Source of the DNA: a virus
Reading direction: 5' to 3' (one strand)
Length of the DNA: 64,000 nt
IMG/VR virus record: IMGVR_UViG_3300019487_000019
Span: 119,278-183,277 of that record
Shown: positions 4,801 through 49,464 of the stretch, in pieces
Position numbering within the stretch: position 1 is the stretch's first letter
Layout of the letters: the number at the start of each line of letters is the position of its first letter
Program-made: the position numbers and the translations under genes
The notes under the pieces: model-generated
Database searches by the model: none
What the model was told of the DNA's origin: nothing
What the model saw: the letters and a program-made list of their open reading frames with translations, nothing else

Positions 4801-4996
4801 GTGCCACTTCAACGTCGTTGTCCATCAAATCATATTCACGATAACGTGTAATACGAGACGCGGAACCTTGAATGAGACGTTGATACCATGTGTAGTTTGC
4901 ATAGACGCCTTGATCACCAAGCGCCTGACTATCGGTCATTGTTGTCGTACCAACTCTTGGTTGGACGACCTTGAAAAAATCGACGAACTTTGCCAT
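1850..4996 (-). CDS. gp20: portal protein (gp20-like) containing an intein
   Basis: LLEDAIIIYRIQRAPERRVFYIDVGKMP and EDFFFAQRPEGKGSKVEVLPGGQGLGEL portal motifs. Confidence 0.96.
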   Translation of the reverse strand: MAKFVDFFKVVQPRVGTTTMTDSQALGDQGVYANYTWYQRLIQGSASRITRYREYDLMDNDVEVARALDTIAEEMTGSNPQVEMPIELYVKQEKEEFIPPSIVMTLKSALRYWCDLHDWETRLFKVARTTIKYGDCFFLRKSDTRKWEYLHPKNVVAAIVDENDMTRVLGWQIKQEIKTPNSPYNSPVGHFGKYAETQVDTFTADEIVWFTLNDDIGESAPFGESVLRAIYRAQKQKELLEDAIIIYRIQRAPERRVFYIDVGKMPPQRVKTYLEQIKNEIRQKKIPTYGGGVEQVDSVYNPHCLALDTQIPLLDGRHLTLQEIIGEFEQGKTNWAYSINPKTGEVVPGEISWAGITRRNTTVVKLTFDNGETLVCTPDHKIPVQGGGYKLAKDLTQEDSLFPFTLRQNAIRNQLTYTQVYQPGAKKWEYVHKMVGNYIKTKGRHVEFVFDEQLSVEKKQTLHHVDFNRYNNNPENLVFMNFVDHRRYHNSHYEQGKLSRETGRKAFRERLNADPDLKRQFVASHGKTLSERMKVDLALREKFVKNIRSKPTPLKNQSLVFTNEMFDIVKNVIMQKPTISLDQLIETVNQPGCEFLQSYADANKKQQQKSLMVKIKTDVFSKRSLRIMMQQYGYQSFKVFRTSIIQNNIEAQTIQTSSLMNETISLITKVSPHNFAIVNYLKQNPDVWKQYASAYNKTFDTEINIPDAHMFEGVAHHYNYRSFKHLVSELSNFNHKIVSIEWLPEKVDTGTITIDGHHKLHDYHNFAISAGIWVLNSMNEDFFFAQRPEGKGSKVEVLPGGQGLGELADLEYFQWKVFRGLRIPLSYMREGTDNAVITDGAVGVAYIQELRFALFIRRLQRYVEKVMDKEFKRYLHAAGIHAETSMFSLRLPDPENFGIYRQQKLDSELLNTMSTAMSITWLSARFAGKKYLQLSDAEQLENYYKKCEELQLNPDDPASMVKVYGPQPEPGAEAGMGGLGGGGGMFPGALPAGGGLGDLGGAPGGAPGTEPGGLGGETGAPPAGGPAGIGTPPAGQTPELAGGMPPPA
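2669..4087 (-). mobile_element. 473-aa intein with HNH endonuclease in the portal
   Basis: VYNPH|CLALDTQIPLLDG...CTPDHKI...HHVDFNRYNNNPENL...HNFAISAGIWVLN|SMNED; excision restores YNPHSMNEDFF. Confidence 0.93.
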
Positions 4997-5053
4997 GTTA
5001 GGTCCTATTTTTATAGTGCAAAGTTATTTATCCGCTGGAAAACAAAGGTACCT

Positions 5054-40483: not shown

Positions 40484-40768
40484 TTAGTTTATAAAGACGT
40501 CGGGGGAACCGGCCGTGAAAGCACCATCATGACAGCTAGGAGGACAACAGTGAACGCTGTGAAGGTCGCCTACGCGTGCAAGAGGGAGATTATTGGCAAA
40601 GACATTCGGGGAAGCCGTGACAACAACGGCGGGCGGAAAGCACCCATGCCCGGTTGTTAAGTCGGTAAGACGAGCGTGTGGAATACTATTTGCAAAAACG
40701 TTTGGGCTTCCCGTGGCTTGTGTATCGCCGTCGCTATAAGGGTCGCCAATTCGGGTTGCTGCTGGCAC
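40484..40768 (-). CDS. PAAR spike-tip protein (gp5.4-like)
   Basis: MPAATRIGD, GSPNVFAN.IPHAR, HGCFPP, LARVGD, GSPDVFIN. Confidence 0.93.
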   Translation of the reverse strand: MPAATRIGDPYSDGDTQATGSPNVFANSIPHARLTDLTTGHGCFPPAVVVTASPNVFANNLPLARVGDLHSVHCCPPSCHDGAFTAGSPDVFIN

Positions 40769-40812: not shown

Positions 40813-41289
40813 ATGTTCGAGAGCATTTTACACGGTATTATAGCGTTTTTCGCTGCCATCCCATTTTCCAAAGCGACCTGGCTCGTACTTGGTATTCTTG
40901 GCTTCTTTGTGTGGCTATTTCGCAAGGCTCAAAGAGACCCCGCAAGCCCAATCGATTGGGAAGATCTGATTGTCGACGACATAACAGGGAAGACATCTCC
41001 CTACAAAGTCGGCTATCTTTTAGGACTGATCGTCGGCACCTGGGTAGTAATCACTTACGCTGACAGTGGCAAGCTGGACTTTGATATTTTTGGTGTGTAC
41101 CTTTCGTACCTGCTTGGTGGTGCTGGCTGGACTGCCTTTATGAAAATGAAAGCAGCCAACGGCAACAACGGTAATGGAGGTGGTTATCGTCCTGGTGGTT
41201 ACGGCGGCGGTTATCGACGACCACCACCAAAACTAGACGATGATGACGAAGAATTAGATGACGCATTGCCGCCACACGAGAAAAAATAA
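40813..41289 (+). CDS. membrane protein, holin-like candidate
   Basis: Three to four hydrophobic segments, DLIVDDITGKTS, charged C-terminal tail. Confidence 0.5.
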   Translation: MFESILHGIIAFFAAIPFSKATWLVLGILGFFVWLFRKAQRDPASPIDWEDLIVDDITGKTSPYKVGYLLGLIVGTWVVITYADSGKLDFDIFGVYLSYLLGGAGWTAFMKMKAANGNNGNGGGYRPGGYGGGYRRPPPKLDDDDEELDDALPPHEKK

Positions 41290-41361: not shown

Positions 41362-41838
41362 CTACGCCCATTGGTAATCGTTTGTCGCGGCGCGGAACTC
41401 TTCTGAAACGAAAACGTTAGGGAGTAAAGCACGCACGTCTCGATCGCGGATGCTGACGAATGTAGCATAATGTACGGGATTACCTGTGCTCTTTTCGATA
41501 AAATGCCCCGCTCTGTACGGATTATAACTGATCGGAATTCCAAAGTCGTGAACCGCGTCCCATGACTTTGCAATATTACTGGCAGTATATCCCGCTAACA
41601 AAGTTTTTTCGTCGACGAGGCGCGTCACGTATCCTCGAACGTCGAGAACCTCACCAACGATTCCGGCATGAACGTTTTTTCGTTTGTGGGCTAGAATACG
41701 TTGGCGACCAGCTTCACTGACGCGAAAGTCAGGAGCGGCGATGAGTATGGATGTGGCGTAGCCAACAACCAATCCTTTGTTCCGGAGCGAATACGTCCAG
41801 CCTTTTCGGTTAAGATTACGGTAGATAAACGGTCTCAT
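41362..41838 (-). CDS. conserved phage hypothetical protein
   Basis: MRPFIYRNLN...FRVSEAGRQRILAHKRKNVHAG...YNPY; ATGA coupling. Confidence 0.7.
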   Translation of the reverse strand: MRPFIYRNLNRKGWTYSLRNKGLVVGYATSILIAAPDFRVSEAGRQRILAHKRKNVHAGIVGEVLDVRGYVTRLVDEKTLLAGYTASNIAKSWDAVHDFGIPISYNPYRAGHFIEKSTGNPVHYATFVSIRDRDVRALLPNVFVSEEFRAATNDYQWA

Positions 41839-42023
41839 TGATTGGGCTCGTGAACAGCATCGACCCATCCACGGCCAGTATACATGAACATCTGTCCGAG
41901 GCCGGTGTGGAAGAACGTTGAGCCAATTGGTATGTCTAGCCACACACGAACACCATTCGATAGGTCGCGAAATTGTTTTGGGACTTCTTCACCCGTAATG
42001 TGATGTGCACTAAAGTTGAACAT
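41835..42023 (-). CDS. hypothetical 62-aa protein
   Basis: MFNFSAHH...QMFMYTGRGW; fills the gap between coupled genes. Confidence 0.5.
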   Translation of the reverse strand: MFNFSAHHITGEEVPKQFRDLSNGVRVWLDIPIGSTFFHTGLGQMFMYTGRGWVDAVHEPNQ

Positions 42024-42162
42024 TGGGAATGTACGGACAATAGAAATAGCCAGTGTCGTGGGCTCCGCCAAGCATGAAGACAAGAACACCGTTTTCCAAC
42101 CACACAAAGTCTCCGGTGCCTTTGTAGCCAACGAGAATATTCTCTTCTTTGTTTGTTGTCAT
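42010..42162 (-). CDS. 50-aa mini-protein with a major capsid (gp23) C-terminal motif
   Basis: Below the ORF-track cutoff; ATGA-coupled to the RNase H stop; MTTNKEENILVGYKGTGDFVWLENGVLVFMLGGAHDTGYFYCPYIPNVQL. Confidence 0.7.
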   Translation of the reverse strand: MTTNKEENILVGYKGTGDFVWLENGVLVFMLGGAHDTGYFYCPYIPNVQL

Positions 42163-43070
42163 TTGCTTAGTAGGGGAACAAATTGATCAATTTGCTTTGC
42201 AATATTGTCCAACTTGTATTTACCCAAGAACTTCAACAGATGGAAATGTGAATACTTTCGCTCCAATGCCTCTGCTTCCACAACAGTCTTTTCGATTTTG
42301 ACGCGAATTGGGTCGGGTTGCTGGGCCAAGTCCATAAGGAGAATGTTCTCTTCGTACAGATCTTCAACCATGAATTCAGTCTTGGTTTTGGGGTCAGTCC
42401 ACAATTCCTTCATCATTTGAACCCGTTCAAATGGATCTGTGTAGGCTTTCTCGATTCGTTTTGCACCAACACGTGGAAGTGCAGATTGAATGTTGTCAGT
42501 CTGATGATCGCCACGAACACAATTAAAGAATACGAAGTAATCAGCATCGTTGTTGTATTCTGCCAACGTAAGCGGCTTGTCTGTTGCGGGGGAAATGATT
42601 GTTAGCTGTGGGTGGCGCAAAAGCTGCAAGAAATCCTGGTCGCTACTGATCAGTACGATTTGATCTTGTGGATGCAGTTGTACAAAACCAGCGATCACGT
42701 CGTCTGCTTCGAGTAAATCTGCTGCAAGCGTAATGATTGTTGAGTAGTTTGTAATCAATGTCTCAAAGTCTTTAAGATGTCCACAGAAGCGTTCGTACTT
42801 TGCTTGTTGACCCGGCGACATATCTTTGCGGCGATTGCCTTTGTATGGTCGCTTTGAGATGCAGAGATCGCTAGCTGTATAACTCTTACGCCAGCTTGAC
42901 CGATCAAACGCCATAACGACTCGATCAGGCTTATGCTGTCGAAAGTATTTGTTCAGCGTCATCAGTGCAGAGTGCATTGCGAGGCCTGCGATCGTATCAT
43001 CACTCTCGTCCTTGTGAGCAAAGAACGTGCGGTACAGCATATTGGAGATATCAAAAACTAGATATTTCAT
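42159..43070 (-). CDS. rnh: RNase H / 5'-3' flap exonuclease (T4 Rnh-like)
   Basis: VFDISN, AFD..SWRK, YKGNR, EADDVIA, ISSDQDFLQL, RGD..DNI. Confidence 0.92.
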   Translation of the reverse strand: MKYLVFDISNMLYRTFFAHKDESDDTIAGLAMHSALMTLNKYFRQHKPDRVVMAFDRSSWRKSYTASDLCISKRPYKGNRRKDMSPGQQAKYERFCGHLKDFETLITNYSTIITLAADLLEADDVIAGFVQLHPQDQIVLISSDQDFLQLLRHPQLTIISPATDKPLTLAEYNNDADYFVFFNCVRGDHQTDNIQSALPRVGAKRIEKAYTDPFERVQMMKELWTDPKTKTEFMVEDLYEENILLMDLAQQPDPIRVKIEKTVVEAEALERKYSHFHLLKFLGKYKLDNIAKQIDQFVPLLSK

Positions 43071-44246: not shown

Positions 44247-44687
44247 CTACTCACCATTTTCCTCCTTTTCGCTGTCTGCGTCAAGAAGTGCAACAAGATC
44301 GTCAACAGACGTTGGTGTAGTGCGCGGTGAGCCATCCTTCTCCAGCTCGAAGACTTCTGCTTCGCCTGAAAGATTCAACCATACAGCAACAATGTGTCGA
44401 TGGCAAAACTTTCCTGGACCTTCATAACATAGCAGGATCGAACCCTCGGGAAGAGCATCAACGACAGCGCCCGGGGTTAGATGACGTTGTTTTAATTCTT
44501 TCCCGTAACGGCGAGTGTATTCCTGCGCATTGATTGTGCCACCTTTGATATCACGAAGTAACTCCCACGACGGAGCCAAAGAACGCATTCGTTTTCCCTT
44601 ATAGAAGAACGGTTCTTTTGCACTAATTGATACAGCTTCTGGTCGTTTCCCTGAACGGGAATAGTATGACGTGTATAGGCGCTTCAT
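44247..44687 (-). CDS. DUF488-family protein
   Basis: LYTSYY, LAPSWELL, LLCYEGPGKFCHRHIVA; ATGA coupling at 44687. Confidence 0.8.
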   Translation of the reverse strand: MKRLYTSYYSRSGKRPEAVSISAKEPFFYKGKRMRSLAPSWELLRDIKGGTINAQEYTRRYGKELKQRHLTPGAVVDALPEGSILLCYEGPGKFCHRHIVAVWLNLSGEAEVFELEKDGSPRTTPTSVDDLVALLDADSEKEENGE

Positions 44688-45610
44688 TTGCGTTTCTTGA
44701 TCGGTTTCTTCGGCGGTGCCGGTTTCTTTGGCGCTTCTCCCGTCTCCACCCAATGCTTGATGTTTGACGCATCAGCAGCCCGAGCTTCATTACTAATGGC
44801 ATTGAGCAACACGACGATAACCTTTTTCACGCCCATTGAAGTCATCATTACAACACAACGGCCGGCATCCTTGATGTAGCCAGTTTTCTGAACTTCGATA
44901 GTCCAATCAGGCTTTCGAACAAGGCCGTTCGTGGTACCAAAGCCAACCTTTTTGGCTCGCTTTTTACTATACGTTGTCATCTCAAATTGAGTCGATGTAC
45001 TGAAGTCCTTAACGAGAACGTAATCACTTGAATGTCGAACGAGAATGGCAAGGTCTGTGGCGGTTGAGACGTTGTCATTACGCAATCCAATCGAATCGAC
45101 GTACTTTGTACTGTACATTCCAATCATTTGTGCTTTGTGGTTCATCGCACCCACAAAAACATCAACCCCACCTGGATAAGTGCGTGCAAGAGCAGCGGCA
45201 GCGCGATTTTGGGAATTCATTAACGCCAGATGGAGTAGCTCCGCTCGAGTGAGCTTTGCACCAACTGGTAATGAACGGCTCGTTCCACTATCCGCTCGTG
45301 TTGCCTCAACATCCTCTTGTGTAATTACGATTTCTTCCTCGAGATCAAGACGAGCATCGAGAATAACAACAGCTGTCATTAGTTTTGTAATCGAGGCGAT
45401 CGAACGGATGTCTTCTGCGTTTTTCTCGATGATTTTTTCACCTGTCTCAGCATCGATGACAAGTACAGATTGAGCATTTAGAGGGAACGGCGGTTGTTCG
45501 TCGGCCTTTGCCTTACCAGCAACAAGCCAAAGAAGCCCTGCCATTGCCGCAGCCAAGAGAACAAATTTGCCAATGGACCAAGCGCAATAAACAATTCGCG
45601 GATACATCAT
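44684..45610 (-). CDS. pbpG: D-alanyl-D-alanine endopeptidase PBP7-like (peptidase S11)
   Basis: N-terminal signal/TM segment; IASITKLMTA (SxxK), SQN (SxN), KTGY (KTG), YPGG, AMNHKA. Confidence 0.88.
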   Translation of the reverse strand: MMYPRIVYCAWSIGKFVLLAAAMAGLLWLVAGKAKADEQPPFPLNAQSVLVIDAETGEKIIEKNAEDIRSIASITKLMTAVVILDARLDLEEEIVITQEDVEATRADSGTSRSLPVGAKLTRAELLHLALMNSQNRAAAALARTYPGGVDVFVGAMNHKAQMIGMYSTKYVDSIGLRNDNVSTATDLAILVRHSSDYVLVKDFSTSTQFEMTTYSKKRAKKVGFGTTNGLVRKPDWTIEVQKTGYIKDAGRCVVMMTSMGVKKVIVVLLNAISNEARAADASNIKHWVETGEAPKKPAPPKKPIKKRK

Positions 45611-45615
45611 TCCTC

Positions 45616-48600
45616 CTAGCCAAAAAGATCATCAAACAACAAATCTTGTTTCGTTGGTGTTCGCTTTCCTATTGCTTTCAAAATGTTTTGGAGTGGATTG
45701 TCAACTAATCGTTCAATGTGAGCATCGTAGTCAATGTCAAAATTTTCTAGGAACCACGGTGGCACAACTTCAATGTCGGTTGGAAGAGCAATACTTTTGA
45801 ATTTCGAACCGCCGAGTTGATGAAGTGCATCGAGGTAAAAGACCTTGATTTTCATGTCATTTGTGATTGGTGGACTGATCTTATCTCCGTACTCCTTCAA
45901 ACATTGATTGTAATGAATTGCTGCTGCCACGTGGCCGGGCAGACGCGTATCTTCACCGAATTGTCGATATTGCCTCTCATAATCTTCAATACCATGAATT
46001 CCCTTGGGAAGTCCAATTTGCATCACATCCTTTACAGCGCGCAGCTCATCTTTGTAATTGACAACCTCTCTAGCCACAGTTTCCCACGAGCTACCCTTCA
46101 GATATCCCGCAACAAACGCATTAAGTCGATCAGCGATAGGACGTGGCAATGTGGTCTTTTTTGTGTCAAGACCCATGACCTTCATACTATCTGACGGTTT
46201 ACCCTCCTTGTCAACAACATGCAATACATAGCGTTTCTTATCAACTAAAATCCCACGGTCCGATATGATCTCTCTACCGACTTTAATCACCTCATCGAAG
46301 CCTTCATTACACAAAAAAGTCTGTTGTAAGAATGCTTTATATGACTCGTTGACCTTTTTCGCAACTGCATCTGCAACTTTGACAGCGTCTTGGACGTTTG
46401 TACAATGTGTTCGGAAATATGTGCTATCAGTGTTGTGAACAAGTATTTCATTCGCATAAAACAGATGAGTATCATTAACTTCAATATCATAGACGTATTG
46501 TTCTCTTGGGGGCAGAGCTTGAACTTTTAAACATTTAGCAAATGAAAGATTGTATCGTGTTTCTGCTTGTTTTTTCCGTCCCTCATTCCACTTCTTTGTT
46601 TTTCGTGGTTGTATAAATCCTACCAAAGAGTAAAAGTCTTTTTGATTTCTAATTGTAAGTCTTGTTGAAAATGTTCCCGTTGGTTGCCCGTTATAGGAAT
46701 TGGGTGTGTTTTCTGTAAACCACGTTGATGATATCCCACACAACAGCAATAATCTATGAATGTCTTTAATGTGTTGCTCGTTGACACTTGCAAGGCCAAC
46801 AACCTTTTGATTATTTGACCAACCATCAGCAGAAAACCAACCACGCAAAAAGGCACAAATATTTTCAGTGGTGTCAGTAAATAACCAACGTGGAATAATC
46901 TTTTGGTTTTCTTCGTAGAGATGTTTTCGCAGCGTTTTGCGAAGCTTTACAGAAGAAATTTGAATATCGTGACCGTTTGGCTTAACATACCACGATGAAA
47001 TCCAACCATCTTCCTTTAGAGGTTGTAAAAGATTCGAACAAACGACATTTAAATCCTGTCTTCCAACTGAAAGTAATGTTCCGCCCGTTTTAGTTTTATC
47101 TACATAACCATCGCCCATAACATAGCCCATTAATGTATAAAGATGTTTTGAATAATCGGTTTGACAAGTTCCTTTAAAGGGAATGTAGGGAAGAGTTAGT
47201 AATGATGAACAAATGTTAGTTGGTTTTGTTTCTTGCAAAAAATCTCCTGACGTTTTTCTCTGTTGGGTGTTTTTGTATGTTATTAAAGAGTGGTCTTCAG
47301 TCAAGTCCACATATTGACGATTTGTAATCCACACGCGATATAATTGTTTGGTTGTTTTATGACGCATCACGTATTTAATTGGTCTAAAACACGTTTGTTT
47401 TGTTTCTTTATCGTAAGTAAGCGCTTGTTGGTCTTGTAAGAAACAATATTCTTTCTTGTCAATTTGTTTATTGGTTGCTGTAAATAAACTTTCAATCGTT
47501 CTTGGACCTTTAACTGTCTCTATCAAAGTATCACCAGCAACACTGTCGCCATATAGAACCGATTCTGCCATAAAGCGACCGTTGAACACTGGTCCACCTA
47601 ATGCAGCCGCATCAGCGACACCAGCTTCACTAGCACTTTTCGGTGTATCATATTGAGGAAACTCAACATTATAATTGCCGTCAAGAATTTCAGCAACTTT
47701 TCGACATTGGTGTCGTAGAATCATGCGGCCAGTCCCAGTTGTACTCTCTCCCATCCGAAGATCGTAGAAGCGGAAATACAAATTGGTGAGCGCCCCGTAC
47801 AGTGAGTTCAATTTGATCTTGAACACATACTGGAGACGATCATAATAGTCAGCCTTATCGTGATCATCTGCAGCTTCAGCTTCCTTCTTCATCGCTTGAT
47901 ATTTCCGTCGCATCGCATACCATTCGGCAAGAATTGTCGGAATGATTCCTTGTTCGTTTTGATCAAATACCGTACCAAATCCACTGACGGCCCACTTTCG
48001 TTTCTTCAACCAGTCTCGAAATTCATCACCGGACATTACTACGACCTCTCCCGTTTCGAGTGTTAAATGAAGCTGAGCAAAAGTCCCCTTGGCAATTGCT
48101 TCGGTTGCTTTTTCCTCTTCACGAAACTGACCACGAAGTGTTTCCGGGGAGATATTGATAGCTCGAATAGCACTTGGATACAGAGAGTTGATATCGATGG
48201 AAGCAATGAATTCATGCAGTCCAACTTGTGGATATAGTACAAGCGCTCCTGCAATTTGTTGATCAACGGCTGGTGGCTTTGCATTTTGTACAACACGTTT
48301 CAACACGTGATGACAATAGTTAATGATAGCAAACTCTGCTAGTTTCAAAGTGCCCGTGACGTGCTCGAATAATCCGGTTGAAATGTGATACATTTGATTT
48401 GCAAGCTCGATGTAGCCAAGCTTTTGTTCGAAACCGTGCAGAATTTCAACATCTCGAATGTTGTATCGTGTGAAGAACCCGTAGTTCTTCCGATACAAAT
48501 CATGTAATGAGCCTTGATATTCCAACTTTGGAAGTCCCAGACCAACCTCTTGTTCGATTGATGCTAGTTTGTATGATGGTTTATCAGCTACTTCGTATTT

Positions 48601-49413
48601 TTTGTATAGTAATTGATAGTCAACACGGATTCGACCTTCAAGATCGATCGTATCACCAAGTTTCTTTCGTTCTCCTGTTTGCACATCAACAATAGCTTTG
48701 GAGAACACTTCGCGCCAGGTTGGCTTGCAACCCCGAAAATCGAGTTTTGAAAGCGGAATCTTGTAGCGCTCCATGCGCTTTGCGATGTATGGCATATCGA
48801 ACAAATCACTGTACCAACCAGAAAGAACGTCAGCATCACTAATCTCATCAATCATCTTGTTGAGAAGTTCGAGTTCATTTTCACAGACGTGTAGTCGAAG
48901 TTTATATGTTGTTGGAATAGGTACGTCCTTGCCGATTTCTTCAAGTAGTCGTTCGGTTGTCCATCCTGCTTCTGGTGGAACGGTGTAGACAACCAATTCA
49001 TTGCTCCATTCGTGAAACATAGCAATTGAACTAATGGGAGCATAGGGATTTTGAACGCCTGCGAAGCCCAGTTCGGGGTTATAATCAACCTCAATGTCTA
49101 GAAACGTGATATGAAGCTTTGGTGCTGGTTTGGCATAGTATGCCATTGAAAGAACGCGTTGTTCTGATGCGATGTCACTTTCGTACAAAGTGTGTCCATT
49201 GCGTTCGTATTCTTGACGTTTGTTGTAAAAATCGCTTTTGCTAATGCATTCAACTCTGGAAACTCGATCTCCATAAATCGTTCGATACTTGCCATTGACG
49301 TTATCAATGTAGAAATAGTGCGGTGCCGGGTAAACGACTTCTGTTCGGCCATTCTCGTCTCGCTCCCAAACGATGACGTCCTCGTTTTTCGTGATTGCAG
49401 AAATATAACTCAT
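45616..49413 (-). CDS. gp43: family B DNA polymerase (gp43) with intein
   Basis: LDIEVD, YNIRDV, DINSLYPS, KIKLNSLYG, YGD|TDS, KKRY. Confidence 0.97.
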   Translation of the reverse strand: MSYISAITKNEDVIVWERDENGRTEVVYPAPHYFYIDNVNGKYRTIYGDRVSRVECISKSDFYNKRQEYERNGHTLYESDIASEQRVLSMAYYAKPAPKLHITFLDIEVDYNPELGFAGVQNPYAPISSIAMFHEWSNELVVYTVPPEAGWTTERLLEEIGKDVPIPTTYKLRLHVCENELELLNKMIDEISDADVLSGWYSDLFDMPYIAKRMERYKIPLSKLDFRGCKPTWREVFSKAIVDVQTGERKKLGDTIDLEGRIRVDYQLLYKKYEVADKPSYKLASIEQEVGLGLPKLEYQGSLHDLYRKNYGFFTRYNIRDVEILHGFEQKLGYIELANQMYHISTGLFEHVTGTLKLAEFAIINYCHHVLKRVVQNAKPPAVDQQIAGALVLYPQVGLHEFIASIDINSLYPSAIRAINISPETLRGQFREEEKATEAIAKGTFAQLHLTLETGEVVVMSGDEFRDWLKKRKWAVSGFGTVFDQNEQGIIPTILAEWYAMRRKYQAMKKEAEAADDHDKADYYDRLQYVFKIKLNSLYGALTNLYFRFYDLRMGESTTGTGRMILRHQCRKVAEILDGNYNVEFPQYDTPKSASEAGVADAAALGGPVFNGRFMAESVLYGDSVAGDTLIETVKGPRTIESLFTATNKQIDKKEYCFLQDQQALTYDKETKQTCFRPIKYVMRHKTTKQLYRVWITNRQYVDLTEDHSLITYKNTQQRKTSGDFLQETKPTNICSSLLTLPYIPFKGTCQTDYSKHLYTLMGYVMGDGYVDKTKTGGTLLSVGRQDLNVVCSNLLQPLKEDGWISSWYVKPNGHDIQISSVKLRKTLRKHLYEENQKIIPRWLFTDTTENICAFLRGWFSADGWSNNQKVVGLASVNEQHIKDIHRLLLLCGISSTWFTENTPNSYNGQPTGTFSTRLTIRNQKDFYSLVGFIQPRKTKKWNEGRKKQAETRYNLSFAKCLKVQALPPREQYVYDIEVNDTHLFYANEILVHNTDSTYFRTHCTNVQDAVKVADAVAKKVNESYKAFLQQTFLCNEGFDEVIKVGREIISDRGILVDKKRYVLHVVDKEGKPSDSMKVMGLDTKKTTLPRPIADRLNAFVAGYLKGSSWETVAREVVNYKDELRAVKDVMQIGLPKGIHGIEDYERQYRQFGEDTRLPGHVAAAIHYNQCLKEYGDKISPPITNDMKIKVFYLDALHQLGGSKFKSIALPTDIEVVPPWFLENFDIDYDAHIERLVDNPLQNILKAIGKRTPTKQDLLFDDLFG
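46432..47544 (-). mobile_element. 371-aa LAGLIDADG intein in polymerase motif C
   Basis: YGD|SVAGDT...LTEDHS...GYVMGDG...FLRGWFSADG...VYDIEV...FYANEILVHN|TDS. Confidence 0.96.
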
Positions 49414-49435: not shown

Positions 49436-49464
49436 ATTTTACGCCGGCCCACCAGAAACGACAA
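49436..49464 (-). promoter_or_regulatory. sigma70-like promoter for the polymerase operon
   Basis: TTGTCG-N17-TAAAAT. Confidence 0.65.

Follow-up and report, generated by a model that had tools for sequence, protein, structure and literature searches.

What is a piece of the major capsid protein doing in a 50-codon open reading frame among the replication genes of a phage? The window analysed here, a stretch of 64,000 nucleotides, forms the final 64 kb of an IMG/VR virus record 183 kb long, whose completeness CheckV puts at 58%. An earlier note on this DNA had pointed to a 50-aa ORF carrying two capsid motifs, and that ORF (P0001, hereafter the mini-ORF) is indeed present at 42010..42162 on the minus strand. 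Its 50 codons encode, in order, an N-terminal stretch of 8 aa, ILVGYKG (block 1, 42118..42138), an unrelated 20-aa insert TGDFVWLENGVLVFMLGGAH (42058..42117), DTGYFYCPYIP (block 2, 42025..42057), NVQL and the stop, all on the minus strand.

The phage's own gp23 is encoded just outside the window, about 43 kb from the mini-ORF (L001, 1480..2916, minus strand; 478 aa; PF07068, 323.5 bits). It reads ILVGYKG-GNGET-DTGYFYCPYIP where the mini-ORF reads ILVGYKG-(20 aa)-DTGYFYCPYIP. In the alignment to this gene that the earlier note had called for, block 1 is identical at 7/7 positions to gp23 residues 403-409 and block 2 at 11/11 positions to residues 415-425. All 18 block residues are therefore shared (18/18), and the spacer consists of 20 unrelated residues versus 5, the insert standing in place of the gp23 loop GNGET. 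The Pfam Gp23 profile matches the peptide alone at 17.2 bits (E 0.0036, profile positions 310-325 of 376), short of the 24.4 bits that PF07068 sets as its gathering threshold, and phrog_138 ‘major head protein’ matches it with an E value of 7e-4, below the curated cut-off. When 50,697 phage records were searched by tblastn, the meaningful matches of the mini-ORF all fell in major capsid genes. The similarity to gp23 is far beyond chance and, at the level of sequence, the mini-ORF derives from a gp23-type capsid gene.

With 50 aa the product does not hold the full HK97-type fold, which comprises the N-arm, P and A domains and, in T4, the I domain within about 400-520 aa. Both halves of the A-domain motif GYKG-x(4-5)-D-x-G-x-[FY]-Y-x-P-Y are present, but they are separated by 20 residues, not 4-5. 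The peptide is a fragment-derived ORFan and structurally no member of the Gp23 family.

The earlier note had pointed out a similar motif near the C-terminus of T4 gp23, and the structures bear this out: PDB chains 5vf3_A and 6uzc_a (5VF3, 6UZC) align T4 TVGYKGPN-EMDAGIYYAPYV to this stretch of the phage's own gp23, in the region of the blocks. Counted along the alignment, the T4 equivalents of the blocks are approximately residues 435-454. In T4 gp23, residues 381-420 belong to the A-domain and residues 486-502 to the A-P linker (PMC9546572). By residue numbering rather than coordinates, the blocks would thus fall in the A-domain, between residues 381-420 and the A-P linker. They are the most conserved part of gp23 in the Pfam profile, in the T4 alignment and in our alignment of gp23 loci (A3), where their invariance is partly circular because the loci were fetched by the motif pattern.

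Two AlphaFold models were too poor to use: that of the phage's own gp23 from a 35-sequence alignment (pLDDT 54, below 50 in the motif region) and that of the mini-ORF, which gave three short strands at low confidence (pLDDT 57). By major capsid protein, the closest cultured phages are two Xanthomonas jumbo phages, XacN1 with 60.7% identity and Xoo-sp13, followed by jumbo phages of Stenotrophomonas and Ralstonia. Just downstream of gp23 and outside the window lies a 453-aa ORF (L001, 3-1361, minus strand) with several Cys-rich, zinc-finger-like motifs. An HNH-like H..H...N stretch can be seen in it by eye and its Pfam treble-clef matches are sub-threshold. If this ORF were a homing endonuclease beside gp23, recombination would be expected to concentrate at the capsid locus.

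The 20-residue insert between the blocks has no source detectable by protein searches, IMG/VR scans or duplication tests. Its origin by internal tandem duplication is unsupported in the half-versus-half alignment (p = 0.09), as is any duplication origin in the comparison with the gp23 unit (p = 0.45) and at the DNA level (p = 0.63). Matches of the insert to P0125-P0129 found by phmmer are noise: these are large, internally repetitive proteins with heterogeneous Pfam matches, and in P0125 the 19-22-residue match recurs in the repeats, inflating the summed score.

The earlier note had placed the ORF among replication genes, and this location stands: the mini-ORF is part of a replication gene string and lies away from the structural module. 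The minus-strand run leading to it begins with an intein-containing family-B DNA polymerase, an S11 peptidase and a DUF488 protein, and continues with a candidate sliding clamp (a weak match, phrog_223, E 0.0018), a 150-aa protein and a 303-aa RNase H / 5'-3' exonuclease (FEN; 42159..43070, minus strand; PF02739, 7e-17; phrog_107). The clean coupling to RNase H that had been described is also there. The mini-ORF ATG (42162..42160) overlaps the RNase H TGA (42161..42159) as ATGA, in the same orientation and with no intergenic gap. Next comes ORF62, a 62-aa ORFan (41835..42023, minus strand) in the +1 frame relative to the mini-ORF, whose ATG lies 14 nt inside the mini-ORF end and whose TGA overlaps the ATG of an L5-gp82-like gene (41362..41838, minus strand; PF25735, 5e-26). 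ATGA-type overlaps are found at the 150-aa gene/RNase H and ORF62/gp82-like junctions as well. One gene caller extends ORF62 upstream; the non-overlapped part of this extension has a negative codon score (-0.16), and therefore the start is most likely the ATG at 42023.

The spaced genes of the region have clear Shine-Dalgarno sequences (AGGAG, AGGAGGA, AAGGAGA). None is clear at RNase H, the mini-ORF, ORF62 or the gp82-like gene, all of which overlap the preceding stop; RNase H is a gene beyond doubt, although for the mini-ORF the missing Shine-Dalgarno sequence counts as a point against. We propose that the mini-ORF and ORF62 would be made by termination-reinitiation on the replication-gene transcript, in which case translation of the mini-ORF would be needed to hand ribosomes on to ORF62 and gp82. 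Selection for gp82 expression alone could favour keeping both frames open, but it would not account for the perfect conservation of the blocks.

The same arrangement raises the possibility that the mini-ORF supplies the N-terminus of a fusion protein of about 107 aa. Ribosomes would enter ORF62 through a programmed +1 frameshift, for which there are two candidate sites: CCC-A following CPYIP, and the CTT-TAG at the end, similar to the CUU-U of prfB. ORF62 is in the appropriate frame with its 14-nt overlap and lacks a Shine-Dalgarno sequence, and the mini-ORF ends CAA CTT TAG T (42009-42015, minus strand), CTT being the last sense codon before TAG. A slip site of the prfB type is thus present, but no Shine-Dalgarno-like stimulator is found upstream of CTT and ORF62 has its own ATG. 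The fusion adds no homology to gp23 either: the Pfam score falls to 15.8 bits, compared to 17.2 bits for the mini-ORF alone, and BLASTP shows no further similarity. No sampled relative carries the cassette, and we consider the fusion very improbable.

Similarity between the two small proteins was not found by BLASTP. Their genes share two direct DNA repeats of 12-14 nt (encoding NGV.V and VWL[DE]) in permuted order, which are probably due to chance. ORF62 has Gly/Trp hairpin-like motifs (NGVRVWLD, GQMFMYTGRGWVD), and similar motifs (GQPEVFNGKAWVAL, GELLMYDGGNWIV, DEIIVWSGDEWIT) occur in small, seemingly unrelated ORFs that distant relatives have behind RNase H (L054 at 4870-5052 and, in L221 and L222, the ORF that comes first after RNase H). 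These hairpin-motif ORFs may represent a recurrent type of small protein in this slot, even though phmmer did not link them.

Is the mini-ORF expressed early, together with the polymerase gene? The earlier note had put it downstream of a sigma70-type polymerase promoter. There is a 9/12 sigma-70-like match upstream of the polymerase gene (49464..49436, minus strand), but a match of this quality is no better than background: 16 promoter-like sites were found versus 15.8 expected in shuffled sequence, and the case for this promoter is weak. We found no minus-strand terminator-like site between the polymerase gene and the mini-ORF, and therefore co-transcription of the two is plausible. There is no T4-type late promoter (TATAAATA) near the mini-ORF.

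Several neighbours are of interest in their own right. The family-B DNA polymerase gene (45616-49413, minus strand) is split by an intein with a LAGLIDADG domain in Pfam, and the polymerases of relatives L052-L054 are 895-922 aa long without intein matches. A Peptidase_S11 / beta-lactamase-like D-Ala-D-Ala carboxypeptidase gene (44684-45610, minus strand) directly follows the polymerase gene, a position kept in these same relatives (L052, L053, L054). Just downstream of the gp82-like gene is a 94-aa PAAR-motif protein (40484-40768, minus strand), and a PAAR gene recurs nearby in relatives. Adjoining it on the plus strand is a protein of 158 aa (40813-41289), predicted to be a membrane protein, whose acidic tail is rich in Gly, Tyr and Arg.

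To place the locus in a wider context, we compared it with its relatives. Where RNase H is 59-74% identical, its gene and the gp82-like gene overlap directly, and therefore the 324 nt that hold the mini-ORF and ORF62 (42162 to 41839) are an insertion. It sits exactly between the RNase H stop and the gp82-like start, has an ATGA junction at each end and was seen in none of the relatives sampled. After the identical copies, the best-matching RNase H has only 74% identity to that of this phage; the relative that carries it, the closest sampled, has a gp23 with 92% identity and also lacks the insertion. More distant relatives have other small ORFs, or different genes, in the slot that follows RNase H. 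The 324 nt are a lineage-specific insertion into a variable slot. A partial RNase H on L214 (IMGVR_UViG_3300032401_000251), 85% identical over residues 1-103 up to the contig end, is the closest non-identical relative seen.

The identical 50-aa protein is carried by 8 contigs, some of up to 355 kb, and the DNA of the window is 100% identical over 441 aligned columns to that of three further contigs, which come from at least three samples. Identical copies occur in the samples SRR7811987, SRR7811943 and ERZ27251178. Beyond the protein itself, no homologue was found among about 5.8 billion proteins searched through a word index. Against 1.84 billion cluster representatives, an exhaustive phmmer run gave the protein itself and otherwise repeat-protein noise. 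Scans of IMG/VR and JGI metagenomes gave only gp23-type matches with the short loop, an ESM Atlas search gave no usable match, and a DNA search of phage GenBank records with the region gave none. ORF62 has no homologue in the databases searched, and the insertion ORFs have no paralogues in the phage's own genome. The earlier note had counted a lack of homologues under purifying selection against its own reading, and on this point the result is unfavourable: none turned up in the databases searched. With no orthologue and with 100% identity among the copies compared, the evidence for constraint is indirect and comes from codon profiles rather than from dN/dS.

One explanation for such a distribution is that the mini-ORF arose neutrally, when illegitimate recombination pasted part of the capsid gene of a co-infecting relative, along with unrelated sequence, into the hypervariable slot after RNase H. 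The frame would then be open since it is short and young, and any translation would only relay ribosomes to gp82, the peptide itself being functionless. A cassette confined to a single lineage and without homologues fits this explanation, as does a slot that holds different small ORFs in different relatives. It is less easily reconciled with how neatly the start and stop of the mini-ORF are fitted to both neighbours, or with the 45-nt net insertion between the blocks being in frame.

We addressed the coding potential using codon log-odds, for which the 87 ORFs in this genome with 200 aa or more served as the training set. The mini-ORF scores +0.30 per codon in its own frame, compared to -0.15 and -0.43 in the other two. 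For comparison, 50-codon windows in true genes score 0.27±0.13 and off-frame windows -0.55±0.26 per codon, while spurious ORFs of 40-70 aa nested in long genes score -0.09±0.14, 1% of them reaching +0.30. The signal extends to the parts unrelated to gp23, with +0.40 per codon for the N-terminal 8 codons and +0.26 for the 20-codon insert, a value reached by 0.4% of off-frame 20-codon windows. Such gene-like sequence in frame outside the capsid blocks argues against a neutral scrap. By its codon usage, the mini-ORF is probably translated.

The blocks themselves carry a different kind of information. Although all 18 residues are shared with the phage's own gp23, 12/18 block codons differ (5/7 in block 1 and 7/11 in block 2), every one of them synonymously (12/54 nt). 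The closest relative's gp23 (L073, same contig as L168) matches that of this phage at 52/54 nt, compared to 42/54 nt for the mini-ORF. With 12 synonymous differences versus 2 in the closest relative's gp23, a recent self-duplication of gp23 can be rejected. The near-identical recent duplication that the earlier note had named as an objection is therefore not what we see, the codons being moreover atypical of gp23. Duplication of the resident gene after the split from this relative cannot explain the divergence, and therefore the fragment appears to have come from elsewhere than the resident gp23.

We then looked at every stretch in IMG/VR encoding DTGYFYCPYIP, which gave 110 contigs. In 110/110 the motif lies in a long gp23-type ORF with a 5-residue loop. 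No other mini-ORF with this motif exists among these contigs, nor does any gp23 with a long inter-block loop that could have been the source. No donor gp23 could be identified, the best match being 46/54 nt. These 18 residues are encoded by 54 distinct gp23 segments, which in pairwise comparison share 46.5±2.7 of 54 nt, high even at 60% overall protein identity because the genes share codon preferences common to the family (GGT, TAC, ATC, TGC, CCA). The mini-ORF matches these segments at 41.9±1.6 of 54 nt, with a maximum of 46. It has the minority codon at 11/18 sites, including CCG (0/54) and CCC (1/54). Under the gp23 site profile its codon log-likelihood is -28.1 versus -13.1±4.1 for gp23 segments in a leave-one-out calculation, placing its codon choice about 3.6 SD off the profile, and 1/54 gp23 segments scores as low.

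How do these numbers bear on a neutral origin? The blocks are invariant in all sampled gp23s, and any donor would give 18/18 identity together with synonymous differences. The one gp23 segment of the 54 that is equally atypical makes an unsampled, atypical donor and a recent neutral capture conceivable. Both the distance of about 3.6 SD from the gp23 profile and the ceiling of 46/54 nt among the 110 contigs point the other way, and overall we think a neutral by-product, the main rival explanation, rather unlikely. Relative to every sampled gp23, the synonymous sites of the blocks look saturated, and the gp23 codon bias appears to have been lost with the 18 residues unchanged. This pattern suggests a long history outside the capsid gene, with purifying selection on the two blocks, which would have been held constant by selection. 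Comparing a fragment with the site profile of its parent family in this way provides a reusable check for the independent evolution of orphan fragments.

We therefore return to the explanation that we favour, with somewhat better than even confidence: the mini-ORF is a real, lineage-specific micro-gene built round a gp23-type fragment, probably translated, whose product is a putative capsid-segment competitor. The product would be a small beta-rich peptide showing two segments of the capsid A-domain, the domain that forms the capsomer core, with a new 20-residue connector between them. It would compete for whatever binds the invariant A-domain segment in unassembled capsid protein. Candidate partners are host factors, for instance a chaperone or an immune sensor, and the capsid subunits themselves. 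In its more specific form, a capsid-segment mimic under purifying selection that occupies a host factor or caps the capsid subunits of co-infecting relatives, we regard the hypothesis as unlikely.

A sub-case of the micro-gene explanation, proposed in the earlier note, is that an early peptide would act as an immune decoy, occupying a host capsid sensor without activating it, or would poison the capsid assembly of competing phages. Some defence systems, among them Avs7 and Dsr1, do sense the major capsid protein (PMC13581612). No part of gp23 is more conserved than the copied segment, among loci that were selected by the motif, and the mini-ORF lies among the replication genes with no late promoter of the T4 type near it. 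Against this, no sensor is known for this A-domain segment, and an inhibitor binding the invariant block would also strike the phage's own capsid protein. The mini-ORF has no homologues that could be found and no match to a functional family, anti-defence families included, in PHROGs or NCBIfam. We judge this sub-case to be quite improbable.

If the capsid-segment competitor were confirmed, it would be the first stand-alone phage-encoded capsid fragment to serve as a decoy or competitor. Conserved structural proteins of phages are often what bacterial defence systems recognise, and a harmless fragment occupying the sensor would be an obvious counter-move, of which we know no described case. 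The mini-ORF offers a concrete and cheap test case, with 50 residues, a defined motif pair and a defined parent protein, in the XacN1-like jumbo phage family where the motif is invariant. Even if neutral, it shows the capture of a piece of an essential structural gene into an early-gene slot and a four-gene translational coupling chain preserved across an insertion.

The reviews and papers covered here describe no stand-alone phage gene for a capsid fragment, which is not proof of novelty. Among known systems, capsid-triggered abortive infection invites comparison. Lit senses the Gol peptide of T4 gp23, and CapRel and CmdTAC, like Avs7 and Dsr1, sense the major capsid protein. Their trigger is a short capsid segment or fold, comparable to the blocks of the mini-ORF, but it is the capsid protein itself and not a separate gene as here. 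The Gol region, moreover, is in the N-terminal half of gp23 and is not the segment present in the blocks. Relative to prfB, the mini-ORF is alike in ending CTT-T(AG) with the next ORF in the +1 frame, and unlike in having neither the upstream stimulator, nor conservation, nor homology support for a fusion.

Compared to T4-type gp23 (PF07068; 5VF3, 6UZC), the aligned TVGYKG...DAGIYYAPYV in the A-domain corresponds to the blocks of the mini-ORF. The mini-ORF differs in having 50 aa instead of 478, in lacking the P, I and N-arm parts, in its loop of 20 aa instead of 5, in scoring below the Pfam cut-off and in a codon usage unlike that of gp23 genes. In its genomic behaviour it is like the lineage-specific small early ORFs that T4-like and jumbo phages carry in their hyperplastic regions: it is short, an ORFan, translationally coupled and located in a variable slot. 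Unlike those early ORFs, it visibly comes from an essential structural gene, with two blocks perfectly kept.
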